A stretch of 52,041 nucleotides of DNA from Candidatus Nomurabacteria bacterium (GTDB taxonomy: Bacteria; Patescibacteriota; Minisyncoccia; Phycocordibacterales; UBA9973). The translations under genes were made by a program, and so were the position numbers. The DNA lies in contig JAPLXQ010000013.1 in the NCBI GenBank assembly GCA_026395995.1, positions 1 to 52,041 of the forward strand, written 5' to 3'. Positions 22,478-40,231 of this stretch are shown piece by piece (the stretch's first letter is position 1; the number at the start of each line of letters is the position of its first letter). A model generated the notes under the pieces. That model saw nothing but the letters and a program-made list of their open reading frames with translations. It had not been told where the DNA came from and searched no databases.

Positions 22478-25400
22478 TTAAAAATTACCAGTCGCAATGT
22501 ATGTAATCGTCGTAGAGTAATTCCCCGCTGGTGTAGTATCAGAAATATTAGCAAGGTAATGCATTTCTACAGTATCAGAAGTAACAGGACCAGAAGAACT
22601 AGCAATAGGTGTCGTAGTTCCACTAACAAAAGACCATTTTGGTGTTGCATGATTATAATTTGCATACATAGCTCCTGTGCCAGAAGTAATCATTGTACCT
22701 GAAAGAGCAAATTCTGATTGACCAATAGAGCCAGCACTAATATTCACAGCTGGTGAAATAGTATTCCCTCCCGAAGTTAAAGTATTTCCAAAATACGTAA
22801 GTGTATAACCATAAGCAGCATTAGTAATAATATTTAAACTATGAGCAACAACATCACTACCTACAGAACCACCAGTAGCATTAGCATAACAAATATTTGA
22901 ACTTGATAAAGTTCCGAAGCCAATATTAGAATTATCATTTGAAAAAGAAAAAGTGATAGCGGTCGGTAACCAACAAGCATCATTATTACCACTATTTGTA
23001 AGATTACTAGTATTAATAGTTATTGCTCCAGAAAAACATCCACCATCCATGACATCGAGATAGTCTGCATTTGCAGTACCAGTAGGATCTATTGTCCATT
23101 TTGTAGGAGTCGCATCAGAACGAAGAGTAATCAAATTACCAAGAGAACCCGTAACAGTAAATATTCCTGTCACATGGAATACTGGCGAGCCTGCAGTTTG
23201 AAAATCAACTTCTTTTGCTCCTGTGTGTGTAATAGTAAAATTATTAAATGTTGTCGTTCCAGAAACTGTCGCAGTATTACCACCATTCATTAATACAGTA
23301 GAAGTACCAGCTGTAAATGTTCCAGAGTTTGACCAGTTACCTGTGACAGTGACAGTCGATGCTTGTGGTAAAAAAGTTCCACCAACACCAATAGTCATAT
23401 TTCCAGTTGTAAGATTGTAATGTGAAGCTAAAGTAGTATCCAAAGTACCAGCTGAAATATTTGTCGTACCTGTGACTGTCGTAATTGCAGCAAGGCTTTT
23501 TACTCCAGCTGCAGTAACACTAAGATTGTAATATGGATTTGTCGTTGGAATTTTTATTGTTTGTGTTCCTCCGTCATATGCAACAGTATTTACTACTGTT
23601 CCTGGTGTGAGTATTCCTGTAGCCATTACTGTACTTGCAAAATTTGTATTTGAATTTAAACCTGTGGCAAAATTAGAAGATCCATTTCCTCCTGTAATAG
23701 TACTATTGAAATCGACAGTTCCTGTATTATTATTCGTTAATGTAAATCCACTACTTATTGTCACCGCTCCACCAAAAATAATTGGTCCAGAACCAGAAAG
23801 ATTTTGGCTTGCTGTAATTGTCGTAGCACCAGCACTAGTATTAAAAGAAGTTCCATTCATTGTAATACCAGCATTAAAATTATTAACTACTGTGTATAAA
23901 GCTCCTCCTGATAGATCAAAACTACTCGCTGCATTTACTGTTACAAGTCCAGAAAATGTTTTTGGATTAGAACTACTAGAACCGACGAGTGAACCAGTCA
24001 CATTTGTCGCGCCAGAAATTGTGATAGCTACTCCACCTAAAGATGTAGTTCCATCTAGAACATTCAAATTTGGTAATGTTATAGCAGTATTGAAACCAGC
24101 TGTTCCTGAAGTATTAAATGTCGCACCTGAGTTTATAGAAATTATTCCTGCTCCAGCCATTAACCCTGTGAGTTGAATTGTTCCTGTACTTGTCTTTGTG
24201 AATCTTGTATCTGCTACTGTTCCAGAAAAAGTAAGACCTGCCCCTAATGTAATATTTCCTGTACTAGCAGTAAGAGCAGCGACCCCTGTCGCATTTGTTC
24301 CTCCGGTCAAAGTCAAAAGTCCACCGAAAGAAGAATGGCACGACCCCATTGTCATTGTCATAGTCCCTGTACTAGTTGAGTTACCGATAAATGTCACGGC
24401 ACCTGTCGTAGTCATAGTCCCCGTTCCATTGTTACAAAAAATTCCTGTATTTCCAGATCCTGTCGGTGCAGTATTGTTCATAATTGCAAGATTTAGATTT
24501 GCGTTACCATTCATCGTAATATACATATTGGAAGCACTCGAGTTTGCATTAAAACTCGTAGTACCAGTGACAGTAGTCGTCGAAAGATCTGAAAGAGATA
24601 TACCGAGTGAGCCTGAAGCCAAAATAAAGTTTCCTTGAAATGTCACAGTAGCAGTATTACTATTTGTAATAGATAATCCTGAAGCTACAGTCACTGTCCA
24701 AAACGTCATACCCATAGAACCAGAAAGTGTCGGGCTTCCTGTGAATGTAGTAGTAGAAGAGGTAGAAATTCCTGTATTTAAAACACCAGTTCCATTGTTT
24801 GTAATATTGCCTCCGAAACTTGTCGTAGGAGTTACAGTTGGTGTACCGACATTTAAATCAAATAAACCTCCAGCATTTACTGTCACATCACCAGTAAATG
24901 TTTTTAAACCAGTACATGATGCAGCAGCAATACAAATTACTGATCCAGAAATATTTGAAGCCCCAGTAAAAGTAATAGCTACAGCTCCTAATTTAGTAGT
25001 TCCATCTAAAACATTTAGATTTGGAAACGTAGTAGAAGTACTCAATGTCGCAATTCCTGAAGTATTAAATGTCGCACCTGAGTTTATAGATACTATTCCT
25101 GCACCGGTCATCGTACCTGTCAGTTGAATTGTTCCTGTACTTGTCTTTGTGAATCTTGTATTGGCTACGTTTGCTGTCGTAAAAGTAAGACCAGCTAAAA
25201 TTGTGACATTTCCAGTACTAGAAGTGACACCGGCTGTTCCTGTCGCATTTGTTCCTCCGGTCAAAGTCAAAAGTCCACCGACAGAAAGATTGCAAGAACT
25301 CATAGCCAAACTAGAATTTCCTGTTGACGTAGAATTTCCTGTGATAGTAGCAGCTCCTGTAATAGTAAATGTTCCAGTACCAGCATTACAAGTAATAGTG

Positions 25401-28400
25401 GAAAGCCCTGTATTTGACGGTGCTGGAATACTCAAAGAACCTGCATTAAGATTTGCATTTCCATTCATTGTGATAGTCTGACTAAAATTTCTATTATTGG
25501 CAGTAAAACTGATAGCTCCCGTCACAGTAGTAGTAGATAAATCTGAAAGCGATACATTTTCTGCACCTCCAGCTCCATTAAAAAGAGTTAACGCTCCAAA
25601 AGTGACAGTACTAGTATTACTATTTGTAATAGTAGCAGCGTTAGCTGTTCCCAGCGTCACAGTTCCCCCGAAAGTCATAGCGACTGGACCTGACAATGTA
25701 GATGTCGCATTGAATGTCGTTGCCCCAGTATGAGTGTTAAAAGAAATGGCACTAGAAGCCATTGTAATATCACTACCAAAAATTGTAGTAGCTACGACTG
25801 ATGGTGCACCAGTTGACAAATTAAAGGATCCTCCAGAATTTATTGTCACTGCTCCGGTAAAAGTCTTAGCGCCTGTACAAGTAGCAGCTGCTGGACAAAT
25901 TACAGATCCAGAAATACTACTCGTTCCACTTACAGTAAATCCAAACCCTCCAAATTTTAATGTAGCATTGGCTGAGACAACCAAGTTATTAGAAATAGTA
26001 TCTGCTCCACCGAGAGTCGTCGTACCGGTGCTGACTGTCAACATTGGAAAAGTATAAATAGCTCCGTTTAATGCTACGGTACCAGTCGTAGTAAAAGAAG
26101 TCGCAGAAGCCCAAGAAAGTGTACCACTCGCACCTAGTGTACAGTTATTTAAAGTAATAGCTGATGCACCAGTAGTAATCACAGAACGAGAAATGTTTCC
26201 AGCTGTTCCGAATGTGACGTTTCCATTTATTGTAAGTGCCCCAGTTCCCATAGTGAGTGATGCTGTTCCAGCCGCTCCACCAGTCAAAGTCACGGCCGCA
26301 GAAGTGAATGCGTTTGTTCCTAGAGATAGATCGATACCATTAAATTGTGTACCAGTCGCCCCACCGTTTATTGTAGTCGTTCCATTTATTGTCAGAGTTC
26401 CACTCGCACCTGATGCTGCGATAATTCCCTCTTTTGCTCCAGCGACAGTCGTAGTCGGAATTGTAAATGTTGCAGTCGTTCCGACTGTCAATGTAGCAGT
26501 TCCGTTCATTGTAATAGTATCTGAAAATGCTCCAGTTGATTGATTGGCTCCTATTGTCAATGTTGTAGTAGTAGATGTTACTGTTCCAGTAGAAAGACTT
26601 AGACCAGTATTTGCTGTAATTGCTCCTCCGGTAATTGTAAGAGTAGAAAATGTGACACCAGTAGCACTTGTATTATTATTTGTCACAATAACTCCAGCGT
26701 TAATAGTGACGGCCCCACCAAAAGACATAGCCACTGTTCCAGCGAGTGTAGTAGCAGCAGTGAAAGTAACTGCACCTGTTCCAGAGTTAAACGCTGTGGC
26801 TCCAGTACTAGCTGTCAAAGTTCCAGCAAAAGTAGTTATAGTTGCGACTCCAGACAAGTTAAAACTTCCTCCAGAATTCACCATGACACCACCACTAAAT
26901 GCTTTTGTTCCTGTCGCACCATTAGAAGCAAGTGAACCTGAAACAGTTACTAGTCCTGAAAAAGTAATACCGACGTTACCGAGAGTTGTCGTTCCAGAAG
27001 TTATATTTACAATTGGAAAAGTGTACGCAGCAGAAATAGCAGAAGTTCCAGAAATGTTTACAGTTGTTCCGGCATTAAAAGAAACTATTCCTGCACCCTG
27101 CATCGTACCAGTCAAATTAAATATTCCTGCACCTGTAGTAGTAAATCTAGTATTGGCTACAGTGTTTCCAAAACTTAAACCAGCTAAAGCAGTAATAGTC
27201 CCCGTACTAGATGTCACACTGGCTACTCCTGTAGCATTTGTTCCTCCGTTTATAGAAAGAAGACCACCCACAGATAGTGTACAAGTATCCATTGCTATAA
27301 CATTTGTTCCTGTTGTAGTACTATTTCCTGTTAAGGTTAAAGTGCTAGAAAGAGTCAAAGATCCAGAACCTGCCGCACAAGTAAATTTAGATCCTCCTGT
27401 ACTTGTCGGAACGTTTAAAACCATAGAAACAGCTGAAATACTCCCTGTTCCATTTAATGTAATTGTTTGAGCATTGGCAGTAGTGTTTCCAGTATAGGTA
27501 ATAGCTCCTGTACCACCCGAAGATGTCGTCACGGTTAAAGTGGCTCCTGTACTAATAGTCAAACCATTAGCCGCTGTCGCTACTGCCATAGTTATGGACC
27601 CAACAGATGCACTAGCAGAAAGTGTTACTGTGACTCCAGAGTTTATTGTCAAAGCATCGGCAATACCAGGCCTATTTCCTGTACCTGTCCCTGTCGTCGC
27701 TGCTCCTGTACAAGAAGTGAAACTTGCAGTATCTGTACCACCCCAAGTTCCTGTAGCTGTAGCATTACAAGCGGCATCAGAAGCTATTTGCCAATTACGA
27801 CTTTCTTCAAAAGAAATATTTCCATTATTATTTAATTGTATTTTTCCTAATACATAATATTCAGGAGAAATATTTGGCGCATCAAAAATATAACCCAATT
27901 CGATCGTTTGTCCTGCTATTAAATTAACATTCCAAGAAATCTTTTTTACTTGAAGACTAGGATTATTTGGATCTTCAATAGTATCTACAGAATTAAAGTT
28001 CTCTCCATTTTCTGGAGCTAAAATATCAAAACTTTCTGGTACAAATTCACTTACAGTTCCCTGCCAATTATTATTTGCTGTTACTTTTATTAGCATTGGA
28101 TAATTTGCCAATGGCCAAATACGAGTCGGGCCAATTCTTTCAACAGAAATATTAGAGTTTGATGAAACTTCAAAAGTATCATTAATAGTTTTGATACCAT
28201 TATATGTATTAGCAGTAAGTTTCATTTTATAAGTACCAACTTCGTTTGGAATATTAAAATGTGCATAATAATCTGGTACAGAAATTACATTGTCCGGTCC
28301 ACATTGTGATTCTCGAATTATTGAATTATTACCTGTTGAAAAATTATTTATACTTCCGCTAGGACTTGTGATAGATAAATTCAAATCAGCATCACAAATA

Positions 28401-30406
28401 GTATGTCCACCATCATTCAATACTCCCATTTGTAAATATGCATCATCACCTATTTCAAAAATACTTTTATTGGTGTTAATAGACAAAACACCCCAAGTGA
28501 AATCTTGTTGTGAGACGATTATCGCTTGTGGTGTATTTACTGTTACCTTGAGCGTATATTTTCCAGGTTTAAATTCCCTACCTTTTGTTATTTGGACCTG
28601 CTGTTTATCTATTCCGTTTATGTTTACATTTATTACTCTTGCATTTATATCTGTATCATCCCCATTTAAATCTAAAACTTTTGCTGTAACATCAGGGGTA
28701 TCAGCTAAAGCTTTTTTTGTTTTTAAAAAATCTAAAAATGAAACTGGTGCATCTATTGATTTTATTTCAGTAGTATTTATTGTCTTGTCTTCTTCTTTTT
28801 TTGGTATATCTGGTAAAACTATGATTTGAGAATCTTGTAAATTGTTAGGCAATGCTGTATTCAGAGAATCAGCAGTGGGTTTTACAATATCTTTTATAGA
28901 ATTAATAGTATTATTAGAAGTTGTGTTATCTATAACAGGAGTATCTGTGAGAACTCCAGCTTTATCATCTACCACTTCAGCAGTGCCATTATTTACTAAA
29001 TCTTTAATATCATTAATATTTAAATTTGGAGTATTGATAGTGAAGTTTACATCTTCACTGGAATTAAAATCTTGCTGAGGATTTGAAATAACAATACTAG
29101 AATCTTTTAATTCAACTGTTGGACGATTTAAAATTTCTTTTATATCTTGATATTCGACACTCATTTTCATAGCATCGAGATATATAACAGCGGGAGTATC
29201 ATAAGTCGGTAATGTTTTTATTGAAATTTGAAGATTATCTAAATTTGCCCAAGCATCGAGTGGTATATCAAAAGAAGCATTTTGCCATTGACTACGGCTA
29301 ATAGTTCCAAGACTTTTCCAATCTGTACCATCGAGAGTATATTCTACTTCAGCAAAAGCATCTTGATTTATTTTATCTGAGTTTAATTCAGTTTTCAAAA
29401 GATTGTCTTGATTTATTTTATTTATATCTGATGTTGTATTTGTTGTATCTGTATTTGTTATTGCATCAGGTAAGGTAATTGGTTCAACAACAGGCACAGC
29501 TTCTATAGATGTTGCAGTGGGATCAGAAACTATTACCGGTGCAATATCTGGCGTAGATTGTTCAACTACAGGTGTAGGTGAAGGTTCTGGAGCAGGAGTA
29601 GGAGTAGTATTTTCTTGCGCAAAAACTTTTGTAGAAAAAATATTATACAAAAAAGCTGATACTGGATTATCAGCTGGAGCTGATTCTGGTGCTGGAGCTA
29701 GACTAGGGTCTGGCGCAGGAGCTTGTTCTGCTGGAGCAGAATCTTGTGACGGAACATTCACAGAATTATCAGGATTATTTGGAACTTCTATTAAATTTAT
29801 ATTTGAATTATTATTTGTATCTGTAGTAGAAGAATTATTTGTATCTGTGGAATTAGAATTTGTATCTATAGTATTTATATTTTGTTGATCCGTATTTGAA
29901 ACATTTTCAAATGGTTTTACTTCATTGTGATTTACTGATCCATCATCTACAGACCAAGAAAAAGATAAATGAAAATTTGTTGGTTGTGTGTTATCGAGAA
30001 CTTCCCCTTTGAAACTTCCACAAAAAATAGAACCACTGGATTTATCTAAACGTGCAGAATTAGAAATACTAAAACTTTCTAGAGATGAACCTTCTGGTAA
30101 ATCAGGTTCACCTTGGGCATTTTCTGGATGCTCCCATCCACCGAGACAACTCGTAGGATAAAAATTCGTCACAGATGCATGACCCATAGAAAAAGCACTT
30201 AAAATCGAAAGAGAAATTACTAAAGTTAAAACACCAAAAATAGCTCGACGGTGCTCACGAAATAATTCTTTCATTCTATCAAAATGAATTTCAACAATCG
30301 GTAAATTTTCTTTCAAAATAGGATGATTCTCAATCGTTCTTCGAACGATATCTTGCATAAAAAAATGCTTCGCCTTTTCATCTTTTTTTGGACGCAAAAA
30401 TTTCAT
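22478..30406 (-). CDS. Giant (2642 aa) surface protein: N-terminal TM, acidic Ig-like region, long T/G/S/A-rich beta-solenoid, C-terminal shared domain
   Basis: Uninterrupted 7.9-kb ORF with internal repeats; ends ANISDTTPAGNYSTTITYIATGNF. Confidence 0.88.
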   Translation of the reverse strand: MKFLRPKKDEKAKHFFMQDIVRRTIENHPILKENLPIVEIHFDRMKELFREHRRAIFGVLTLVISLSILSAFSMGHASVTNFYPTSCLGGWEHPENAQGEPDLPEGSSLESFSISNSARLDKSSGSIFCGSFKGEVLDNTQPTNFHLSFSWSVDDGSVNHNEVKPFENVSNTDQQNINTIDTNSNSTDTNNSSTTDTNNNSNINLIEVPNNPDNSVNVPSQDSAPAEQAPAPDPSLAPAPESAPADNPVSAFLYNIFSTKVFAQENTTPTPAPEPSPTPVVEQSTPDIAPVIVSDPTATSIEAVPVVEPITLPDAITNTDTTNTTSDINKINQDNLLKTELNSDKINQDAFAEVEYTLDGTDWKSLGTISRSQWQNASFDIPLDAWANLDNLQISIKTLPTYDTPAVIYLDAMKMSVEYQDIKEILNRPTVELKDSSIVISNPQQDFNSSEDVNFTINTPNLNINDIKDLVNNGTAEVVDDKAGVLTDTPVIDNTTSNNTINSIKDIVKPTADSLNTALPNNLQDSQIIVLPDIPKKEEDKTINTTEIKSIDAPVSFLDFLKTKKALADTPDVTAKVLDLNGDDTDINARVINVNINGIDKQQVQITKGREFKPGKYTLKVTVNTPQAIIVSQQDFTWGVLSINTNKSIFEIGDDAYLQMGVLNDGGHTICDADLNLSITSPSGSINNFSTGNNSIIRESQCGPDNVISVPDYYAHFNIPNEVGTYKMKLTANTYNGIKTINDTFEVSSNSNISVERIGPTRIWPLANYPMLIKVTANNNWQGTVSEFVPESFDILAPENGENFNSVDTIEDPNNPSLQVKKISWNVNLIAGQTIELGYIFDAPNISPEYYVLGKIQLNNNGNISFEESRNWQIASDAACNATATGTWGGTDTASFTSCTGAATTGTGTGNRPGIADALTINSGVTVTLSASASVGSITMAVATAANGLTISTGATLTVTTSSGGTGAITYTGNTTANAQTITLNGTGSISAVSMVLNVPTSTGGSKFTCAAGSGSLTLSSTLTLTGNSTTTGTNVIAMDTCTLSVGGLLSINGGTNATGVASVTSSTGTITALAGLSFGNTVANTRFTTTGAGIFNLTGTMQGAGIVSFNAGTTVNISGTSAISAAYTFPIVNITSGTTTLGNVGITFSGLVTVSGSLASNGATGTKAFSGGVMVNSGGSFNLSGVATITTFAGTLTASTGATAFNSGTGAVTFTAATTLAGTVAMSFGGAVTINAGVIVTNNNTSATGVTFSTLTITGGAITANTGLSLSTGTVTSTTTTLTIGANQSTGAFSDTITMNGTATLTVGTTATFTIPTTTVAGAKEGIIAASGASGTLTINGTTTINGGATGTQFNGIDLSLGTNAFTSAAVTLTGGAAGTASLTMGTGALTINGNVTFGTAGNISRSVITTGASAITLNNCTLGASGTLSWASATSFTTTGTVALNGAIYTFPMLTVSTGTTTLGGADTISNNLVVSANATLKFGGFGFTVSGTSSISGSVICPAAATCTGAKTFTGAVTINSGGSFNLSTGAPSVVATTIFGSDITMASSAISFNTHTGATTFNATSTLSGPVAMTFGGTVTLGTANAATITNSNTSTVTFGALTLFNGAGGAENVSLSDLSTTTVTGAISFTANNRNFSQTITMNGNANLNAGSLSIPAPSNTGLSTITCNAGTGTFTITGAATITGNSTSTGNSSLAMSSCNLSVGGLLTLTGGTNATGTAGVTSSTGNVTILAGLTFTTANVANTRFTKTSTGTIQLTGTMTGAGIVSINSGATFNTSGIATLSTSTTFPNLNVLDGTTKLGAVAITFTGASNISGSVICIAAASCTGLKTFTGDVTVNAGGLFDLNVGTPTVTPTTSFGGNITNNGTGVLNTGISTSSTTTFTGSPTLSGSMGMTFWTVTVASGLSITNSNTATVTFQGNFILASGSLGISLSDLSTTTVTGTTSFNANSSASNMYITMNGNANLNLAIMNNTAPTGSGNTGIFCNNGTGTMTTTGAVTFIGNSTSTGTMTMTMGSCHSSFGGLLTLTGGTNATGVAALTASTGNITLGAGLTFSGTVADTRFTKTSTGTIQLTGLMAGAGIISINSGATFNTSGTAGFNTAITLPNLNVLDGTTSLGGVAITISGATNVTGSLVGSSSSNPKTFSGLVTVNAASSFDLSGGALYTVVNNFNAGITMNGTSFNTSAGATTITASQNLSGSGPIIFGGAVTISSGFTLTNNNTGTVDFNSTITGGNGSSNFATGLNSNTNFASTVMATGILTPGTVVNTVAYDGGTQTIKIPTTNPYYNLSVTAAGVKSLAAITTVTGTTNISAGTLDTTLASHYNLTTGNMTIGVGGTFLPQASTVTVTGNWSNSGTFTAGTSTVLMNGGNTATVSGTTTFNNFTITHTGAKEVDFQTAGSPVFHVTGIFTVTGSLGNLITLRSDATPTKWTIDPTGTANADYLDVMDGGCFSGAITINTSNLTNSGNNDACWLPTAITFSFSNDNSNIGFGTLSSSNICYANATGGSVGSDVVAHSLNIITNAAYGYTLTYFGNTLTSGGNTISPAVNISAGSIGQSEFALSGTMITSGTGAMYANYNHATPKWSFVSGTTTPIASSSGPVTSDTVEMHYLANISDTTPAGNYSTTITYIATGNF
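24103..25281. repeat. Intragenic direct repeat, period about 951-954 bp
   Basis: Identical tracts 24103-24139/25054-25090 (37 bp), 24171-24210/25122-25161 (40 bp) and 24285-24327/25239-25281 (43 bp); a more diverged third copy near 27050-27270. Confidence 0.88.
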
Positions 30407-31264: not shown

Positions 31265-31795
31265 TTAATCAATTTGATAAACCCAGCCCGGTTGCCATTT
31301 GAATTTAGCAGTAGTCAATGACTCGAGTGATTCTCCATTGATAAAATGGTCTAAGCCATATTGAGTCGCTCGATGACCGATAACCATAACTTTTTTATTA
31401 TTATAATTCTTTTTTAAATCATCAATAAAACTTTTCATCCGAATGTTTGTTTGCGTGTAACTTTCACCATTTGGAAATGGAATTTCGATTCTATTTGGTC
31501 TTTCATTATCAATTTCTTCACTTGGGTGTCCAGTCAAATCTCCATAATCACATTCCCGAAGTCGAGCATCTTTTATAATAGGAAATTTATTTCCAAAAGC
31601 TATTTCTGCACTCTTATATGCTCGTTGTAAATCAGAACAAAAGATTACATCAAAATGATCATCTTTGTGGCGTTCACCCATATCTTTTGCTTGTTGCATG
31701 CCCAGTGGAGACAAAGCAATATCATTATAACCTGAAGCTATTTTTGCTTCATTATCAAGCGTTGTAGAGTGCCCTTCAAAAATTATTTTTATCAT
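31265..31795 (-). CDS. Histidine phosphatase superfamily protein (non-canonical RHG motif)
   Basis: FEGHSTT, D..LS..G..QA, SDLQRA, DARLRECDYG, FPNGES and VIGH motifs. Confidence 0.88.
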   Translation of the reverse strand: MIKIIFEGHSTTLDNEAKIASGYNDIALSPLGMQQAKDMGERHKDDHFDVIFCSDLQRAYKSAEIAFGNKFPIIKDARLRECDYGDLTGHPSEEIDNERPNRIEIPFPNGESYTQTNIRMKSFIDDLKKNYNNKKVMVIGHRATQYGLDHFINGESLESLTTAKFKWQPGWVYQID

Positions 31796-31816
31796 AAGAT
31801 TATTATATTAAAAAAA

Positions 31817-31891
31817 TTAAACGAGCCATTTGTATGGCTTTAAAAGACTGAAAAGATTTGGTTTTACTTTTTTATCTCCTTTTGGGTTCAT
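31817..31891 (-). pseudogene. 24-codon ORF, possibly an N-terminal remnant of an ABC exporter gene
   Basis: MNPKGDKKVKPNLFSLLKPYKWLV* behind a TGCTATAAT box; the LFSLLKPY segment resembles ABC exporter N-termini (from recollection). Confidence 0.3.
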
Positions 31892-31955
31892 TTTTGTATA
31901 TATCTAAATAACCAGCATATTATAGCATTTTTGCGAGGTTTTGGAATTGAGAAAA

Positions 31956-33632
31956 TTATTTTTCTTCTACATTAATTCCATAGGAAATAACTCTTTCTAA
32001 ATTCATCGGTGATTCTTTTGCTATAATTTTTAATGCGCCTTCTGCATTATTACTTATAATTTGCATATTTTCATCTGAAGGATTATATGTACCAAACTTG
32101 AGAGTCTGACTAACAACTATTCTTAAAGAATCTCCTTTTATTTTTTTAAAAAGATTATAATATTCACTAACTGATATTTTGGCTAATGTTTCGATGTCTT
32201 CGTGATTCCAACTATTTGTTCTTGCGATATTAATTATAATTTCTTCAGGTTGTCTTGTATCTTTAAATGTTGCAAGTTTATTAACAAAAAATTTTTTAAA
32301 ATTTACATCATTAATGTTTAAAAACATTGAGCGACCTGGATCGTAAAATTTTTGATCTTCATTATTTCTTTCACTCATATATAGTGCAATCAACTTATCA
32401 GCTTCTGCATTTTTATTAAACTTACGGAAAAAAACTATTATATAATCTGCATTCATTGGACTCATTGATTTAACATTTTTTTCAAATGATTTATATAAAC
32501 CATCTAAAACTTCACTATCATTCTTATCAAAAGAATTATGATATTTTTTCCATGCATCATGAACTGAATTATCTCTATCTTCTAATTCATATCTTTTATC
32601 AGCTTCTTGAGAATTTTTTTCTATTGCATCAGAATCAAAATATCCATCTTGAATAGCTTTCAATAAAAGAGCATCAAATTCATCAAAACTACTAAAATTT
32701 ATTTTATTTATAATTAATCGCCATTCTTTCTCTTTTTCTCCTTCTTTATTTTTATCATCAAAAAGATCTCCATATCTAAGAAAACTTTTTATAAAATCCA
32801 AAGAAGGGGCTATGGTAGGTTGATAAATTGCCCATCCTAAAAGGGTAACTGATACTATCGCAGATTCAAAAATTCTTTCATCATGAGAAATTAAAAGTTT
32901 TTCTAGTTTTTTTAGTAAAGCTTCAATTTTTCTAATAACTCTTATATTAACTATACCTAAGCTAATACAAGTTTCTGAGAACTTTTTATTAAAAGAAGTA
33001 CTTTTATCTATACCTATTTCTGCTGATTCAATAGGAGTTGGTTCAAAATGCATTTCAACATCAATCACCTTTTCTAGTTGGTTTTTAAAATCATCATTTT
33101 TATCATTTTTGATAAGTTGCTCATCGTTCAAAAGAAGCACTACTTTACAATTTCTTTCATTTTTTAAAAACGATATAAAACCAAGAACTTCTTTAGTAGA
33201 TAAACCTTCTCCCCTACGCTCTAAATCATCAATACAAATTATTTGTCCTCTAACAGCAAGGAAAAGTTCAGGTAAATAATCTTTTATTTTAGGAATATAT
33301 TGAAAAAATTTTGATAACCAACGAACATTTTTTTCAAGAGAATAAATACTATCTTGGACTGTTTTAATACTAGGTCCAGTATCAATCTGACCAACATTTA
33401 CAGTACTTTCAAAAATAGCAGTTTTAACTTTTTCAATTGTATTTACTCCGAACAAACTTACATAAGAATATCTTTTAAGAGAAATGCCATTTTTTAATTT
33501 TGATTCTTTTTTTAAATATTCTTTCCAAGCAAATGTTTTTCCAACACCCCATTTACCCATTATACAAATTACTTCTGGATCAGGACTTTTTAAAAAACGT
33601 TTAATTTCTTCAGATACTAATTTAATTGACAT
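31956..33632 (-). CDS. KAP-family-like P-loop NTPase
   Basis: IMGKWGVGKT Walker A, YVSLFG, ICIDDLER Walker B, EKVID and N.R motifs. Confidence 0.85.
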   Translation of the reverse strand: MSIKLVSEEIKRFLKSPDPEVICIMGKWGVGKTFAWKEYLKKESKLKNGISLKRYSYVSLFGVNTIEKVKTAIFESTVNVGQIDTGPSIKTVQDSIYSLEKNVRWLSKFFQYIPKIKDYLPELFLAVRGQIICIDDLERRGEGLSTKEVLGFISFLKNERNCKVVLLLNDEQLIKNDKNDDFKNQLEKVIDVEMHFEPTPIESAEIGIDKSTSFNKKFSETCISLGIVNIRVIRKIEALLKKLEKLLISHDERIFESAIVSVTLLGWAIYQPTIAPSLDFIKSFLRYGDLFDDKNKEGEKEKEWRLIINKINFSSFDEFDALLLKAIQDGYFDSDAIEKNSQEADKRYELEDRDNSVHDAWKKYHNSFDKNDSEVLDGLYKSFEKNVKSMSPMNADYIIVFFRKFNKNAEADKLIALYMSERNNEDQKFYDPGRSMFLNINDVNFKKFFVNKLATFKDTRQPEEIIINIARTNSWNHEDIETLAKISVSEYYNLFKKIKGDSLRIVVSQTLKFGTYNPSDENMQIISNNAEGALKIIAKESPMNLERVISYGINVEEK

Positions 33633-33637
33633 ATTGG

Positions 33638-34051
33638 TTAAATTTGTTTATTTTTTAAAATTTCGGCTAATTCTTTTACATTCCTAAAAGCATTTATGGA
33701 TTCCACTTCTTCTGGTGATACGAATTTAATTTCTAAACATTCTTCTGAAGGAGTAAAATTTAAATCTTTAACTTTTGTTTCAAGTACGATATTTACACTT
33801 CTCTTACCTTTCATATTTTCTCCAACTAAAAAATAAGATGGATTTTGTTTAATTTCCACTACTTCTAATCCCATTTCTTCTTTGAGCTCACGCCTAAGGC
33901 AGTCCCCGGGTCTTTCAGGCCAATCGAGTCCTCCACCAGGTAATTCCCACCACCCGCTATCTTCAAGGATAACGAGGAACTTGTCACGACTCTCATTTAA
34001 AATAAGCGCCTTGATACTCACTCTGTAAAATGTTTTTGGGATTTCATCCAT
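33638..34051 (-). CDS. NUDIX hydrolase
   Basis: WELPGGGLDWPERPGDCLRRELKEEMGL Nudix box. Confidence 0.92.
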   Translation of the reverse strand: MDEIPKTFYRVSIKALILNESRDKFLVILEDSGWWELPGGGLDWPERPGDCLRRELKEEMGLEVVEIKQNPSYFLVGENMKGKRSVNIVLETKVKDLNFTPSEECLEIKFVSPEEVESINAFRNVKELAEILKNKQI

Positions 34052-34077
34052 GGATTGATTATAACATGTAACTCTAA

Positions 34078-34593
34078 CTAGATTTGTTTATAAACTTCTT
34101 CTACTGTTTCTTCTAAAGTGAGATTGCTAGAATCTATTATTTTACAGTTTAACTCATCTTTCTTTTCTGAAAAAGTTTTATGCAAATCTTGAGTTCTTTT
34201 ACGAAGATCTTCATTATCCCCTCTTTCATCAAAACGTTTTAATAAAGATTCAAGCGATGGTAGGAGAAGAAATGTTTTGAAATTGTCGTCTTTAAAATAT
34301 TCAGAATATTGTCCAAGTAATTTTCTTCCAACTACATCATCAATAAAAACACTAAAACCTTTTTCTAGTAAATTATGAGCCATATCACAGGTATTTTTTG
34401 CACTGAGAGAAAGCTGCAATTCTACTTCGTTATTATAAGGATAGGGTCTAACCTGTCCTCCTATAACCATTGCACGAAGTTTATCTACTTCTATTACAGC
34501 ACTTCGTTCAAATTTATTGGCTAATGCTTTTGTCACTGATGATTTCCCCGCCCCTGCCGGACCAGTGATTAAACAAATAAAATTTTCTTTCAT
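34078..34593 (-). CDS. Small P-loop kinase (AAA_33 type)
   Basis: LITGPAGAGKSS, IEVDKLR, VFIDDV, L..R...R lid. Start moved to ATG 34593. Confidence 0.85.
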   Translation of the reverse strand: MKENFICLITGPAGAGKSSVTKALANKFERSAVIEVDKLRAMVIGGQVRPYPYNNEVELQLSLSAKNTCDMAHNLLEKGFSVFIDDVVGRKLLGQYSEYFKDDNFKTFLLLPSLESLLKRFDERGDNEDLRKRTQDLHKTFSEKKDELNCKIIDSSNLTLEETVEEVYKQI

Positions 34594-34697
34594 AGTTTTA
34601 TTATAACAGATTTTAATGGGAGAGATAAGAAATCGTTTTAATTTAAAAAAATAAAAAGGCTGTTTCTTACGCAACAGCCTCAAATGTTTAAACTTTA

Positions 34698-35297
34698 TTA
34701 CTTTAGACTTTTGTTTTTTATGATTCTTAAAATGTCCTTTATTTCTAATCCAGAAATAATATCAGGATTAATTTCAAGAAAAATATCACCGGACTGAAAC
34801 TTTTGAAATTCAGTAGGGCTGATAATTTTAAAACCTAAATCTTGAAGCATTTTGAGTACAGATGTTATCTGCCCTTCAGCTTCTGGTCCCACAAGGTCGA
34901 GAATTTGGCTTTCAAGCCCTGGTAACTTTGTTTCCTTTTTTACAACAACATTTCTCTTTTGAGAATAAACTATTTTTTTATCAATATTTTTATTTTCAAA
35001 AACTAATTTATCGGATGAAGTATCTTCTTTTTCATCGTTAGTCATAAAGCCTAATGCATAATAACCAGGAACTGCGTTCATTGCCAATTTCAAATTATAG
35101 ATTTTCATAAATTCAGCTTTTTCTACATCTTTCTCAATGCGTTCTTTTATGGCTTCGACTTGATATGCCACAAACAAAATAACAAATGACTCACCAGTAC
35201 CAGGAAGAGTATTACAATTATCTTTCTTTAAGAATTCATGGCACCAGCCTTGTAACCTTGTTACCAAACTAGGATCTTTAATAAGTTTATTTCCCAT
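34698..35297 (-). CDS. Hypothetical protein
   Basis: 199-aa ORF with an upstream TTGACT box and a downstream hairpin. Confidence 0.7.
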   Translation of the reverse strand: MGNKLIKDPSLVTRLQGWCHEFLKKDNCNTLPGTGESFVILFVAYQVEAIKERIEKDVEKAEFMKIYNLKLAMNAVPGYYALGFMTNDEKEDTSSDKLVFENKNIDKKIVYSQKRNVVVKKETKLPGLESQILDLVGPEAEGQITSVLKMLQDLGFKIISPTEFQKFQSGDIFLEINPDIISGLEIKDILRIIKNKSLK

Positions 35298-35457
35298 TAT
35301 TTTTTATTTTCAAGATTAATACTATGTTTTTATCAAATTACCATATTAGAAAAAAATAGTCAATTTATACAAATATAATTAAGAAATAACTAAAAAAGTT
35401 TTTTTAGTTGAAAAAATGTTGTTTTTGTTATAGAATAGCTGAGTTATTGTTTTATAT

Positions 35458-35528
35458 TGGGAGATCGTCTAACGGTAGGACAGAGGCCTTTGAAGCCTTT
35501 AATTGGGGTTCGATTCCCTATCTCCCAG
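35458..35528 (+). tRNA. tRNA-Gln (TTG), CCA not encoded
   Basis: Acceptor stem TGGGAGA/TCTCCCA, anticodon arm GAGGC-CTTTGAA-GCCTT, T arm TGGGG-TTCGATT-CCCTA. Confidence 0.97.
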
Positions 35529-35560
35529 CAATTGACTTTTCTATTTAAATATGTTAATTT

Positions 35561-35652
35561 AAAACTAATTTCGTACTTTGAAAATAGATTTTTTGTTGTT
35601 GATTTTTGTGTTTCCCCTGCTTCTTCTTAGAGGTAGAGGAAACATAAATAAT
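35561..35652 (+). repeat. Conserved structured 5' leader, copy 1
   Basis: 84/92 identical to 36869-36960; follows TTGACT-17-TAATTT; hairpin TTTGTGTTTCC...GGAAACATAAA. Confidence 0.88.
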
Positions 35653-35684
35653 CAATAGTAAATAAACCTCAAATAAATAAACAA

Positions 35685-36578
35685 ATGAAAAAAGTAGCAA
35701 CTGTAGTATTTATACTACTTAGTATTTCATGCGAAAATACTTATGAAAAAAATCGCAACAAAACAACCAGTACAGAAACACAAAATCAAACAACAACTGA
35801 ACAAGCTGAAAGTAAGCCTATCTTATTTACATTAGATTCACTTTCAGTAGAAAACTGTAACACAGACCAACAAATTGAATTCTTGGGGAATCCACCTAAG
35901 AGGTCTAATTTTTACATTATCGGAACAGCTCATTCGTATGTTAATACGGAAAAGCTACAAGGATATATGTATGACAATGGTGGTCTTATGCACAAAGCTT
36001 TTGAAAAAATTCACGAGCTGCAAGGAAACAACAATCCGTTACCGCTTTTTAGCGAAGGTGTCTTTATCAATAAGGGCATCTCAAATGTTACTGCCTTAGC
36101 CAAAGTTGTTCCTCCTTGTGTAATTGATATGGGGTACAAATCGGTAGAAGGAATTGATACGAGAGAACCATCACGAAACAGTATTTTAAATCCGTTGAAC
36201 ATAAAGTTCTCAGATATTTTTACTGAATATTGTGAAATGCGTATTGTAGATAGTGGCAAAGTAATGGGTACTATTAAAAAAGACATTCCTACTGATGTTT
36301 TTATTTGGTTACGTGATACGTGGTATCCGACAATAATCTCTCCTGACATTTCTTTAGAAGAGAGTATTATTTCAAAATCAAAAGAATCAGGGATAGTTGT
36401 TTGTGGTCTTCGTCATGTTGCGCGAATGGGTCTATCAGGTAAACTTGATTGGGCGATCGCTGCTGTTAATGGCGGAAAAAATGTTCTGGAAAGCAAAGAA
36501 GAAGGTATGTTCAGTAATCGAATAATGGCGGAACGGTTCGTATGTGAAAACGTACTAAAATTACCCTGCCTTCCGTAA
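35685..36578 (+). CDS. Hypothetical protein, lipoprotein-like signal
   Basis: MKKVATVVFILLSISC followed by a T/Q/E-rich linker. Confidence 0.75.
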   Translation: MKKVATVVFILLSISCENTYEKNRNKTTSTETQNQTTTEQAESKPILFTLDSLSVENCNTDQQIEFLGNPPKRSNFYIIGTAHSYVNTEKLQGYMYDNGGLMHKAFEKIHELQGNNNPLPLFSEGVFINKGISNVTALAKVVPPCVIDMGYKSVEGIDTREPSRNSILNPLNIKFSDIFTEYCEMRIVDSGKVMGTIKKDIPTDVFIWLRDTWYPTIISPDISLEESIISKSKESGIVVCGLRHVARMGLSGKLDWAIAAVNGGKNVLESKEEGMFSNRIMAERFVCENVLKLPCLP

Positions 36579-36597
36579 AAAGTTAGCAAATGTAAGG

Positions 36598-36632
36598 AAT
36601 CCTCTTCAAATAACATTGAGGAGGATTTTTTT
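36598..36632 (+). terminator. Intrinsic terminator
   Basis: AATCCTCTTCAA...TTGAGGAGGATT followed by a T-run. Confidence 0.75.
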
Positions 36633-36734
36633 ATTCATTTTAACCCTTACCCCTCAACAATTCCGTTCCCACGTCATCCCAGACGGTCAGCAATGGAAAT
36701 CTGAATTGATTTTCCCATTCTAGATTTACATAGG

Positions 36735-36837
36735 TGGGAGCTAAGCGGGAGTCGAAAGCCGGAGGCGGTCGTGCCGAGGTGGGGTAGCGGAATTTTTCAG
36801 TAGAAAAATATCTGTGACCGATGACTCATCTCCCAGC
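36735..36837 (+). repeat. GC-rich structured element ending in a 10-bp copy of the tRNA-Gln 3' end
   Basis: Nested pairings TGGGAG/CTCCCA, GAGTC/GACTC, CGGTC/GACCG and ATTTTTC-agta-GAAAAAT; ATCTCCCAGC at 36828-36837 equals 35520-35529. Confidence 0.7.
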
Positions 36838-36868
36838 TATTGCTTTTTAATCTGAAGTATTGTAATAT

Positions 36869-36960
36869 AAAACTAATTTCGTACTTTGAAAATAGGTTTT
36901 TTGTTATGGATTTTTGTGTTTCCCCTGCTTCTTTATGGAGGTGGAGGAAACACAAATAAT
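36869..36960 (+). repeat. Conserved structured 5' leader, copy 2
   Basis: Direct repeat of 35561-35652; follows TTGCTT-17-TAATAT. Confidence 0.88.
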
Positions 36961-36983
36961 TAACTTAGCAATAAAACAAAAAA

Positions 36984-37244
36984 ATGAAAAAGGGAAACTT
37001 TAAGAAATTATCAAGAAGAAACCGAATAATTATTGGTTTATTATGTTTAGGGTATGTACTCTTTATCGGAGTACTATACTTTCTATGTTCAAAAGAGGAA
37101 CTTGCAAAAGCTAGCTGGGGTTTCACCACATTCGTATATTGGCTATTTGTTAGTCTTATGTGGTTTGGAATAAAAATGGAGCCGGTTTTTAATGGAGCAG
37201 TTAAAGTTTTAGTCGAAGAAACAGCAAAACAACTAAAAGAATAA
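36984..37244 (+). CDS. Small two-TM hypothetical protein
   Basis: 86-aa ORF after leader copy 2 and before a terminator. Confidence 0.75.
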   Translation: MKKGNFKKLSRRNRIIIGLLCLGYVLFIGVLYFLCSKEELAKASWGFTTFVYWLFVSLMWFGIKMEPVFNGAVKVLVEETAKQLKE

Positions 37245-37275
37245 CAAAAAAAAATCAGATTAAATCAAACAAAAT

Positions 37276-37300
37276 CTCTACAGAAATGTAGAGCTTTTTT
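37276..37300 (+). terminator. Intrinsic terminator
   Basis: CTCTACA-gaaa-TGTAGAG followed by a T-run. Confidence 0.75.
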
Positions 37301-37420
37301 ATTTGTCTTTTAATAAAAAAAATAATTAAATCATTTAAAATGACTAGTAATAATAAAGACTAAATACGGCTATTTAAGCTTGCAATATATAAATAAAATG
37401 AGATTTGCGAGTTTTCCCCC

Positions 37421-37468
37421 TTGACTCGAAAACATTACGGGTATATAGTGTACTTATTACAATAAGTA
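37421..37468 (+). promoter_or_regulatory. pnuC-nadR promoter with a palindrome over the predicted start site
   Basis: TTGACT-17-TATAGT followed by TACTTATT-ac-AATAAGTA. Confidence 0.55.
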
Positions 37469-37481
37469 ACTTATAAATATT

Positions 37482-38180
37482 ATGAAATACACAAAAATAA
37501 AGAGATTGTTAGGGACAAAGAGTGAACACATTGAAGGGGCAAAAGTAGCAGTACTCATGCTATTAGCTACAGTCGCATATGAGCTATTATCAAGACATTT
37601 CATTCCAGACTACCATTTTAATATGTGGGAGTTTATCGGGACATGGACAGGCCTTATCTGTGTTTGGCTTTCTCGTACTACAAACATCCTCTGCTGGCCT
37701 TGGGGAATAATAAGTTCAGCAGCACTCGGTATATTCTTTAGTCAAATAGGTTTACCTGGTCAACAATGGCTAAACTGGGGATACTTCGTAGTAATTCAAT
37801 TATGGGCTTGGCCACACTGGGCATTTGGTGGCAAAGAAAAAGACGATCTTCCAGTTACAGTACTATCATTGAAAGCAAGAATTCTCACAATACTTGCTAC
37901 CCTCTTGAGCACAGTAGCTATTTATTCACTCATAGATGTTTTTGTTCCAGGTTCTTCATATCCTTGGATGGATGCTCTGGTTGTATCAGCAAGTATCATT
38001 GCGCAATATTTACTAGGACAAAAAAAGGTCGAGAGTTGGATACTATGGCTCGGACCAGTAAATATGATCTCAATCGTTCTGTTCTTTTTGACAGGCGCAT
38101 ACACACTCACTGCTTTGTATATCGCCTTCTTTATTCACGCTGCTTTTGCTCTAAATAAGTGGGCAAAAGTTAATAAATAA
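37482..38180 (+). CDS. pnuC: Nicotinamide riboside transporter PnuC
   Basis: CVWL...WPWGI, P..DA....SIIAQYLL..KKVESWILW motifs; adjacent to nadR. Confidence 0.9.
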   Translation: MKYTKIKRLLGTKSEHIEGAKVAVLMLLATVAYELLSRHFIPDYHFNMWEFIGTWTGLICVWLSRTTNILCWPWGIISSAALGIFFSQIGLPGQQWLNWGYFVVIQLWAWPHWAFGGKEKDDLPVTVLSLKARILTILATLLSTVAIYSLIDVFVPGSSYPWMDALVVSASIIAQYLLGQKKVESWILWLGPVNMISIVLFFLTGAYTLTALYIAFFIHAAFALNKWAKVNK

Positions 38181-38186
38181 AAATAT

Positions 38187-39173
38187 ATGTTTAACAAAGG
38201 AATCGTTATTGGAAAATTTTATCCACCTCACCTAGGACACAAGTATCTCATTGATACTGCAAAATCTCAGTGCGAACAACTCACAGTGATAGTATGTTGG
38301 AAAAAATCACAATTAATATCTGGCGTAGAAAGAGCTCGTTGGATACAAGAAATTCATCCTGATGTTCAAGTAAAACTCCTAGACGATGATAGGCTTACAG
38401 ATGATGATTCAGAAGGATGGGCAAAAAATACTTTAGATGTCCTCGGCTTTACTCCTGATGCAGTATTTACATCTGAAGCATACGGCGATCCATACGCATC
38501 TTTTATGGGTTGTGTTCATGTACTCGTAGACAAAGAACGCACTCACCTCCCTATCTCAGCGACAATGGTACGAAGTAATCCCATGAAATATGTAAAGTTT
38601 TTAGAGCCATGTGTTCGTGCATCATTTGCACGTCGTGTATGTGTATTGGGCGCTGAATCAACAGGGACAACTACCTTAGCAATGGATTTAGCAAAACATT
38701 ATCATACAACATGGATACCTGAATATGGTAGATTTTATTCAGAAGGAAAAATATTTGGAGACGAAAATGCAGAATGGAGAACTGATGAATTTATTAAAAT
38801 AGCAAAAGCACAAGGTGTACTCGAAGATTCACTAACAGAAGATTCAAATGGTTTAGTTATTTGTGATACAGATGCTTTTGCTACGAGTATTTGGCACGAG
38901 AGATATATGGGTAGCCGTTCACCTCAAGTCGAAGCCATCGCTGCCCGAAGGAAATATGATTTATATATTTTAACTGGAGACGAGATTCCTTTCGTACAAG
39001 ATGGAACAAGAGACGGCGAACATATTCGTCATGACATGCACAAGAGATTTATTGAGAGACTAAATGAAGATCACAAAAAATATATTATAGTATCTGGAAG
39101 CAAAGAGGAACGTTTAAAGAAAGCTATAGCAGCTATTGATACTATTGAAGCAAACGTAGTAGACAATGTATAG
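38187..39173 (+). CDS. nadR: NadR-type NMN adenylyltransferase / ribosylnicotinamide kinase without HTH
   Basis: GKFYPPHLGH, ISATMVR, GAESTGTTT, PEYGR, ICDTD and DGTRDG motifs. Confidence 0.92.
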   Translation: MFNKGIVIGKFYPPHLGHKYLIDTAKSQCEQLTVIVCWKKSQLISGVERARWIQEIHPDVQVKLLDDDRLTDDDSEGWAKNTLDVLGFTPDAVFTSEAYGDPYASFMGCVHVLVDKERTHLPISATMVRSNPMKYVKFLEPCVRASFARRVCVLGAESTGTTTLAMDLAKHYHTTWIPEYGRFYSEGKIFGDENAEWRTDEFIKIAKAQGVLEDSLTEDSNGLVICDTDAFATSIWHERYMGSRSPQVEAIAARRKYDLYILTGDEIPFVQDGTRDGEHIRHDMHKRFIERLNEDHKKYIIVSGSKEERLKKAIAAIDTIEANVVDNV

Positions 39174-39199
39174 ATAACAAAATAATTTAATTCTATAAA

Positions 39200-40231
39200 T
39201 TACCCAAGTATTTTTATTATAGCCATTTCGAGTGGTAGTGAGTCTACAAAAGCTCTATCGATATTTTGATAAGCTTCTAGGATTACAGAGAGTTGTCCTG
39301 AGCGGAGCATACCTTCTTTATCGGTTTTCACGAGTTCCTTTAAGAATTCTAAATCCTCTGGAGATAAATCCCCTGACATTTCTTTTTCTAATTTTGGTGC
39401 ATAACGCAGTATCACAGCCATTCTAAATTTTTGAATAATTAACTTTGTGAAAAGTTTCATATCGAGGTTTTCCTCCCCTGCTTTTCGCACAGAAAGTATT
39501 CCTTCTTCAATATTTTTATTTGCTATAGCTGAGAGGAATTCATTTACGAGTGTCGTCTTCGGAGCACCAGTTATTTTTTCTACATCTTCACGAGTGACTT
39601 TTTTACCTGTAGCAAAGTTCAAGACTTTTTGTAAAGCTCCGAGTGCGTCACGAAAAGATCCATCACCGAGTATTGCGATAAGTTCTGCTGAGCCGTTGTC
39701 GAGCGTGTAGCCTTCTTTTTTCGCTACATCTATTAACATATTTTTTAAAATTAAATCACTAGGTTTTTTGAATGTAAAAATCTGACAACGAGAAATAATC
39801 GTATCTGGTACTTTATTTAATTCCGTCGTCGCCATAATAAATATCACATGGTTTGGTGGCTCTTCGAGGGTTTTGAGTAGCGTATTCCAAGAATCTTTAG
39901 TGAACATATGCACCTCATCAAGAATGTAGACTTTGTATTTTGAATCAAAAGGAAGTACACGCACTCCGTCACGAAGTTCACGCACATCATCTACTCCACG
40001 GTTTGAAGCCGCATCTATTTCATAAATATCATTTTCAGACACGCCGATACCACGAGCAAAAATACGGGCTGCGCTAGTCTTCCCCGTGCCTCGAGAACCA
40101 ACAAAGAGGTATGAATGTGAAATCTTGCCGGAGTCTATCGAACTCTGAAGTACACTCGCAATATGCTCCTGTCCGAGCATATCCGCAAAGCTACTTGGTC
40201 TATATTTTCTATATAATGCCAGTTCGATCAT
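39200..40231 (-). CDS. dnaX: DNA polymerase III subunit gamma/tau (short form)
   Basis: LYRKYRP, GQEH, GSRGTGKTS, EIDAASNRGVDD, DEVHM, LLKTLEEPP, SRC and GSFRDA motifs. Confidence 0.96.
   Translation of the reverse strand: MIELALYRKYRPSSFADMLGQEHIASVLQSSIDSGKISHSYLFVGSRGTGKTSAARIFARGIGVSENDIYEIDAASNRGVDDVRELRDGVRVLPFDSKYKVYILDEVHMFTKDSWNTLLKTLEEPPNHVIFIMATTELNKVPDTIISRCQIFTFKKPSDLILKNMLIDVAKKEGYTLDNGSAELIAILGDGSFRDALGALQKVLNFATGKKVTREDVEKITGAPKTTLVNEFLSAIANKNIEEGILSVRKAGEENLDMKLFTKLIIQKFRMAVILRYAPKLEKEMSGDLSPEDLEFLKELVKTDKEGMLRSGQLSVILEAYQNIDRAFVDSLPLEMAIIKILG

Follow-up and report, generated by a model that had tools for sequence, protein, structure and literature searches.

The window, that is, the whole stretch of 52,041 nucleotides analysed here, is contig C12 of a 760-kb genome with 33% G+C (G000), and the labels on relatives of its elements are Patescibacteria/Parcubacteria. 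The locus begins with the target gene, a tRNA-Gln(TTG) on the plus strand (35458-35529; ARAGORN; Rfam RF00005, 61.9 bits). On the same strand follow a promoter-like sequence with a first leader copy (35532-35684; fold z -4.8), a 297-aa ORFan with a lipoprotein-type signal as judged by eye (35685-36578), its intrinsic terminator (36594-36631), a 28-nt att-like site ending in CAGC (36664-36691), a mini-insert of 146 nt (36692-36837; fold z -3.1), a second promoter-like sequence with a second leader copy (36840-36983; fold z -3.4), an 86-aa ORFan with two hydrophobic stretches (36984-37244) and its intrinsic terminator (37276-37293). Both terminators were called by a terminator scan. The Rfam search returned only the tRNA above gathering score; miRNA models match hairpins below their gathering scores.

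The initial annotation had described a pattern that occurs twice after the tRNA 3' end, and this pattern is real. Copies of ATCTCCCAGC lie at 35520 and 36828, and a direct repeat of 145 nt (83% identity; starts at 35511 and 36819, spacing 1308 nt) is the sole long repeat family between 33000 and 40000. The 92-nt leader said to be common to both copies is there as well (35561-35652 vs 36869-36960; 84 of 92 letters identical), the two ORFs are indeed unrelated (best E 17 between them), and terminator-like hairpins follow both. The proposed sigma70 promoters survive as loose matches, and a consensus scan called neither of the two. It is also correct that no integrase lies nearby: there is no recombinase gene in the window, and the genome's matches are on other contigs. 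What had been overlooked, between ORF297 and the second repeat, are the 28-nt att-like site and the 146-nt hairpin insert.

ORF297 is likely secreted. It matches no Pfam or NCBIfam family over cut-off and has only three known homologues, with no relatives in viral_contigs and none in a PDB sequence search. Atlas leads (0.79-0.80, under 0.9) give the TraB/GumN/DUF5694 group as a weak lead; the AlphaFold model, at pLDDT 30, is unusable. No counterpart of ORF86 turned up in 211 other genus genomes.

Around the tRNA lie about 8 kb of accessory genes (31265-39173), none of which occur at the G091 locus. The neighbourhood also includes a 2642-aa repetitive surface-type protein (22478-30406), a KAP-family NTPase-like gene (31956-33632) and, directly behind the ORF86 unit and without a closing site, a NAD-salvage pair of pnuC and a nadR-like gene (37482-39173); pnuC was not found in the other loci compared. 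The tRNA points towards dnaX in G000, G092, G137, G141 and G108, and away from it in most other relatives.

Boundaries of the cassette

We place a single-gene cassette of 1162 nt at 35530-36691 on the plus strand. It starts at the tRNA end, stops with the last base of the 28-nt site and contains the leader, the 297-aa ORF, the terminator and the site itself, which ends in CAGC, as does the tRNA. The 23-nt tRNA 3' arm from T-loop to discriminator (35507-35529, plus strand) would be the attB/attL half-site, and the 28-nt site, an exact match to the site pattern, would be an attP arm that is now attR. When the genome is scored with a matrix built from 194 distinct sites, this site comes out on top (36.9 bits). 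Its end, position 36691, is the true right end of the cassette.

The spacing of the tRNA and the mini-insert gives the same picture. The distance from the tRNA to the conserved core of the mini-insert is 21-75 nt at 20 other loci (62-75 nt at 11 of the 20), and 1226 nt in the window. Excising the cassette in silico reduces it to 64 nt. Since 1226 nt minus the 1162-nt unit leaves 64 nt, the gap between the tRNA and the mini-insert was widened by the insertion of a discrete unit. We regard these boundaries, together with the origin of the 28-nt site from a large serine recombinase (LSR), as very probable.

The cassette had initially been bounded by the two copies of ATCTCCCAGC, which cannot be upheld because the second copy ends a separate and unrelated mini-insert. 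The second cassette, proposed around ORF86, has to be withdrawn too. No closing site scored in 36838-39300 with the 194-site matrix, and because no such site follows ORF86 its unit is not a demonstrated cassette. There is one closed cassette in the window.

The 28-nt site is not palindromic, and with its flanks it folds no better than shuffled sequences (z -0.4 to -1.7). The genome holds a second unit of 1131 nt (C13:255208-256338), behind a tRNA-Trp and without a recombinase, whose 28-nt site carries the Trp ending.

The locus varies among relatives, as a comparison suggested in the initial annotation could reveal. In G091, whose dnaX and rlmB are 97% identical to those of our genome, tRNA-Gln sits directly between dnaX and rlmB with no insert. 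The search for circular junctions, suggested at the same time, gave neither an empty-site joint nor a circle joint in four runs, all of them searched as contigs, which drop rare forms. In run X1, which may be the source of the genome, one contig spans both junctions unbroken. The same run contains an organism whose tRNA end is joined to G092-type recombinase sequence.

The mini-insert and the leader

The mini-insert consists of a hairpin (36692-36719), an inverted copy of the T-arm (36733-36756), a conserved two-hairpin core (36757-36818) and a direct copy of the last 19 nt of the tRNA (36819-36837; 15 of 19 letters match), all given on the plus strand. Outside the genome studied, 43 of 150 genus genomes contain the core. 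A tRNA lies upstream of 21 of the 33 core copies examined, and none was called in the available DNA for the remaining 12. The copies follow tRNAs of nine amino-acid types and contain no gene. Leaving the window aside, 20 are linked to a tRNA, and in 10 of these the duplication takes in 18-19 of the final 19 tRNA letters at an unchanged offset. We had considered the mini-insert as an attC-like cassette end. This was dropped, given the many tRNA types, the lack of a gene inside and the fact that it is the 28-nt site that separates genes.

MITE- and REP-type palindromic repeats are small, non-coding, hairpin-rich and dispersed. The mini-insert resembles them in all four respects and in having a core with a target duplication. 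It differs in that its arms are copied from whichever tRNA precedes it and in that the duplication starts in the T-loop.

Five further gene-free tRNA-tail inserts are found in the genome at C4:14667, C4:16877, C9:9052, C13:245357 and C13:167823 (tRNA types Arg, Pro, Ser, Leu and Thr). In these the last 17-19 nt of the tRNA are repeated 55-181 nt downstream, and four have an inverted T-arm. Two near-identical tRNA-Ser(GCT) genes lie 2.5 kb apart (C13:90609 and 93182), and tRNA-Gln(CTG) has a partial 5' copy of itself upstream (C13:272674).

The leader is a different kind of element. Its first copy contains a boxA-like word at 35572 (plus strand), which resembles the boxA antitermination signal, and a long hairpin (35599-35655); the genome encodes NusB. 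In an alignment of four sequences, from which the structure was itself derived and which left out a fifth aligned copy, 97% of cells are paired and 5 of 25 pairs are changed on both sides, and none of 500 shuffles attains the covariation score. The hairpin is thus maintained by compensatory changes.

A search for further leader copies had been proposed. There are no further copies of the whole leader in the genome beyond the two (best E 3e-40), whereas in relatives the family does precede unrelated ORFs, with four copies in G092, one in G177 and two weaker ones in G172. In G177 the leader stands with a lipoprotein-like ORF behind a site at tRNA-Gln. Five of the nine copies, including those of the window, begin within about 10 nt after a copy of the tRNA end or a site, as judged by eye; the other four do not. 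The leader stands behind only 1 of 46 other tRNA-Gln loci with at least 1.4 kb of DNA (17 of the 46 have a site, about a dozen of them chosen for it), and a boxA-type word precedes only 1 of 133 single-gene cassettes. Hence, the leader is not the standard cassette part that it had been taken for; both copies in the window belong to a family of structured 5' UTRs specific to the clade.

A metagenome scan gave leader matches in seven stretches, all of them chance matches on inspection. Units in G225 and G111 have heads of promoter plus hairpin that look similar by eye and differ in sequence.

Recombinase and attachment sites

The link to a recombinase comes from a relative, G092. Here an identical tRNA-Gln is followed by an antisense LSR of 502 aa (Resolvase, Recombinase and zinc ribbon domains) that ends inside the tRNA, by a cargo gene and by a site of the same family. 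Over 58 nt, the site region of the window and the far end of this island agree at 83% of positions. Read on the minus strand, 36640-36690 gives LTVWDDVGTELLRGKG*, a relic of an LSR C-terminal tail by its match to the G092 island end and by its tail type, which is also that of the natural LSRs P0033, P0028 and P0072. LSRs that overlap the end of the target RNA on the reverse strand are found in G092, G095, G219, G081 and G068, and absent from the window.

Five of eight LSR islands have 5-6 terminal letters common to tRNA and site. When these five are joined in silico, the recombinase is extended in frame and acquires a W-x-D/E-V-G-T tail; the remaining three gave no clean junction. According to a survey of 121 proteins by eye and by rough pattern, the C-termini of natural LSR relatives are of two kinds, tRNA-antisense sequence and amphipathic tails of the W-x-D/E-V-G-T type. 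Where the sites vary, they do so mostly at third codon positions of the antisense frame, a tendency partly built into the search pattern. At two loci, L101 (G092:C2) and L315 (G007:C1), the DNA upstream of the recombinase start holds the last ~40 codons of the same gene in inverted copy, with an amphipathic tail after them.

The two half-sites are offset from each other as in serine integrases. A GTTC word lies 5 nt further from the common end in the 28-nt site than in the 23-nt tRNA arm. The 23/28-nt arrangement recurs at three tRNAs of the genome (Gln, Trp and Glu), where the downstream 28-mer ends in the tRNA's own last letters; on the opposite strand no 28-mer with the 5-nt GTTC shift was found. 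In serine integrases, attP and attB differ in that the distal binding motif of attP lies 5 bp further out from the crossover (PMC3783163). The shift of canonical att sites is therefore matched at the three tRNAs and in the five islands. Canonical sites differ in carrying the motif on both arms, whereas here, among 194 sites, the left arm alone is conserved.

No cognate LSR of the Gln type was found in the genome. It encodes one Xer-like tyrosine recombinase and two LSRs, none of them in the window, and the two LSRs, at tRNA-Glu and tRNA-Val, are distant from the Gln-type enzyme (25% identity in one case and no match in the other). The first belongs to an island of 7280 nt at tRNA-Glu(CTC) (C2:81412-88764), where the 23/28-nt geometry recurs in a different reading frame. 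The island at tRNA-Val (C13) has its far end about 7 kb off, at a T-loop-type repeat instead.

Gene arrays in related genomes

A degenerate 20-nt site pattern matches in 65 of 212 genus genomes, a count that takes in the unpublished G097 and G098, as against 6 matches for the reversed pattern. (Loci of the unpublished G097-G099 may also add a few rows to the counts of tRNA-site pairs, units and tRNA-Gln loci; none of the examples named here depends on these genomes.) An exact GTDB scan for the pattern gave at least 146 stretches; among the 80 matches listed, most have Patescibacteria-type labels, some are just labelled 'bacterium' and one 'Gammaproteobacteria'. The 28-nt site was not found in viral_contigs. 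Across the 194 sites, conservation stops at the final C, and nothing is conserved to the right beyond 2 nt.

From the Parcubacteria-type genomes we collected 168 distinct site-to-site units under 3 kb, with a median length of 547 nt. One ORF is present in 133 of them, none in 14 and several in 21. The genes of the one-ORF units lie in either orientation (79 plus, 54 minus), many appear to have their own promoter or terminator, and their 133 proteins fall into 130 families. Membrane and envelope proteins are not over-represented in this cargo, which argues against the interchangeable envelope genes of the initial annotation: 29 of 133 cassette proteins are hydrophobic, compared with 248 of 734 ORFs in the genome. 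The longest arrays have 10 near-identical sites with one gene each. In 80 long loci no LSR match or remnant was found, and the units start directly after CAGC. One and the same cassette at two different places was not seen. In L124-L199, a stretch of about 25 nt that is conserved by eye recurs before sites that close minus-strand genes; it may be a promoter facing into the cassette.

Where do arrays start? At least 1.5 kb of upstream DNA is available for 56 of 129 first sites. Seventeen of the 56 follow tRNA-Gln, 25 follow an orphan copy of its 3' arm with no tRNA called around it, and 14 follow neither; for a few of the 25 the tRNA fragment may be longer, and the same array can enter the count twice where loci overlap. 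On the opposite strand the arm has 3 matches in 205 kb. These 23-nt arms at the head of arrays away from tRNA genes suggest that the sites were kept while their flanks were lost.

At least four terminal letters are common to 79 of 112 tRNA-site pairs, a proportion biased by the scan pattern. Where the tRNA does not end in CCAGC, 4 of 34 pairs match at the last five letters; most of these 34 came from a scan demanding CAGC, and two were later accounted for by orphan anchors. Site ends track variant tRNA ends in G219, G211 and G068. A strict rule by which the site end equals the nearest tRNA end was rejected, as it fails at tRNA-Pro, Met and Thr. Orphan Gln arms account for the Pro and Met loci L129 and L135, and none was found for L194 or L175.

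Discussion

We think it reasonably probable that 35530-36691 is a one-gene unit that was integrated at tRNA-Gln, by way of a predicted circle, by an LSR supplied from another element. The initial annotation is borne out in that single-gene cassettes at the tRNA do exist; its enzyme acting in trans corresponds to what we see as the best explanation, a recombinase from elsewhere. No cognate LSR was found in the genome and no excision was seen; true mobilisation in trans is accordingly a prediction, held with less confidence than the boundaries and the origin of the site. The cassette may by now be stranded, because the LSRs of this genome sit elsewhere and are distant from the Gln type.

The reaction would proceed as follows. 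The 23-nt tRNA arm would be attB, and the 28-nt site would supply the left arm of attP. Strands would be exchanged within the last 4-6 common letters, and a crossover there would rebuild the tRNA. Each new unit would enter at the tRNA and move what was already there downstream. Autonomous islands have their attP within the 3' end of the recombinase gene, so that the enzyme would have different C-terminal tails in the integrated and the circular form. Applied to the window, the leader-ORF86 unit would have stood behind the tRNA first. The hairpin mini-insert would then have arrived and copied the last 19 nt of the tRNA, and finally the ORF297 cassette would have been inserted between the two.

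One could also argue that the unit is simply an autonomous LSR island minus its recombinase gene, and that arrays are piled-up immobile scars. We consider this unlikely, but a good deal of what we found would fit it. LSR islands carry cargo and end in the same family of 28-nt sites. The window retains a tail relic that extends beyond the 28 nt and is close to the G092 island end, and the third-codon-position bias, in part a product of the pattern, points the same way. The lack of a cognate LSR and of excision (four runs, contigs) fits as well, and integrase-less islands are known in Dehalococcoides (PMC3146451). Three observations speak against immobile scars. First, the units start right after CAGC without a recombinase remnant (80 loci). 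Second, arrays reach up to 10 near-identical sites with one gene each. Third, some arrays away from tRNA genes begin with a minimal 23-nt tRNA arm. The relic route and the route of mobilisation in trans may also both apply.

The arrangement as initially conceived, with standard promoter/leader units bounded by ATCTCCCAGC (35530-36837) and carrying interchangeable envelope genes, is highly improbable. The 145-nt repeat is real, members of the leader family do precede unrelated ORFs (five of nine near a tRNA-end copy or site), and the lipoprotein-like ORF of G177, with its leader behind a site at tRNA-Gln, fits it. Yet the second ATCTCCCAGC ends a mini-insert that occurs gene-free behind many tRNA types, the leader and the boxA-type word are almost always missing where they should be standard (1 of 46 other tRNA-Gln loci and 1 of 133 cassette genes), the cargo shows no hydrophobic enrichment and no site follows ORF86.

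A single old tandem duplication of tRNA end and leader, after which the ORFs diverged, is more doubtful still: the two copies are adjacent, 83% identical and the only ones in the genome, but the ORFs are unrelated, an LSR-type site and a mobile mini-insert lie between them, the leader family is dispersed in G092 and a close relative has none of it. As a full explanation the duplication is refuted; the second leader alone may be of local origin. Equally hard to credit is a use of the 28-nt sites by the resident Xer-like tyrosine recombinase in the manner of dif-like modules: dif sites are 28 nt long too and an Xer-like gene is present, but the sites here are not palindromic, are in frame with LSR tails, close LSR islands and show the 5-nt attP/attB shift.

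We return to integration by an LSR from another element, for which the closest precedents are the ssrA islands of Dehalococcoides, followed by SCC composites. According to PMC3146451, the ssrA islands use a CcrB-like integrase, DsiB, and target the tmRNA gene with a 20-bp repeat from the T-loop; they have a six-gene module and multi-gene cargo, and some lack the integration module. They resemble our system in a reverse-strand LSR that overlaps the 3' end of the target RNA and has a variable C-terminus, in a conserved motif beside a short direct repeat, and in tandem islands, some of them without integration module (PMC3146451). They differ in that here the target is tRNA-Gln, only 4-6 letters are common, the units mostly carry one gene (median 547 nt), and arrays can be started in other places than the tRNA by orphan copies of its arm. 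SCC composites with ccr-less pseudo-SCC likewise stack serine-recombinase elements at a gene end, with several copies of the integration site and recombinase-free parts. Unlike our units, SCC elements integrate at orfX/rlmH, use Ccr proteins and are tens of kb long (PMC3900703). CPR LSRs score 99-134 bits against Ccr models, whose cut-off is 900.

Integrons and CALIN (PMC4889954) have co-oriented sites with one ORF between them, as in 133 of our 168 units and one in the window, a primary site heading the array, very diverse cargo and enzyme-free arrays. Here, in contrast, there is no IntI and no folded palindromic attC, and genes lie in either orientation. The sole PF00589 gene of the genome has XerD as its best model (240 bits) and reaches 132 bits against the integron integrase, with a cut-off of 265. 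Tycheposons of Prochlorococcus are tRNA-targeted as well, and newcomers push older elements inward, leaving partial tRNAs; they differ in their tyrosine recombinases (910 of 937), in carrying the integrase and in att sites that are partial tRNAs of about 40 nt (bioRxiv 10.1101/2020.12.28.424599). A literature search, which took in few subscription papers and no supplements, found no description of such an array system in CPR.

More tentatively, and with somewhat less than even confidence, we propose that Parcubacteria run an integron-like gene capture. It would be driven by an LSR, with the 23-nt tRNA-Gln arm as a portable primary site and the 28-nt recombinase-tail relic as the cassette site. 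Recognition of one arm would suffice, recombinase-free one-gene circles would be served in trans, and a swap of tails on excision would switch the direction of the reaction. The arm would even be copied behind core genes and seed arrays there. The sites are short and a specific recombinase of 502 aa can be named; the idea is therefore open to testing, in vitro or in E. coli. An LSR of this kind, which reads a tRNA end and requires a single conserved arm, would be of interest for use as an integration tool as well.

The window is a small example of such arrays, with one closed cassette, whose insertion it dates against a second element and which it links to the near-identical end of an autonomous island in a close relative. 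If the proposal is true, it would explain how ORFans are gained and shuffled in CPR genomes of 0.5-0.9 Mb, and integron-like arrays would then have had a second origin, based on another enzyme.
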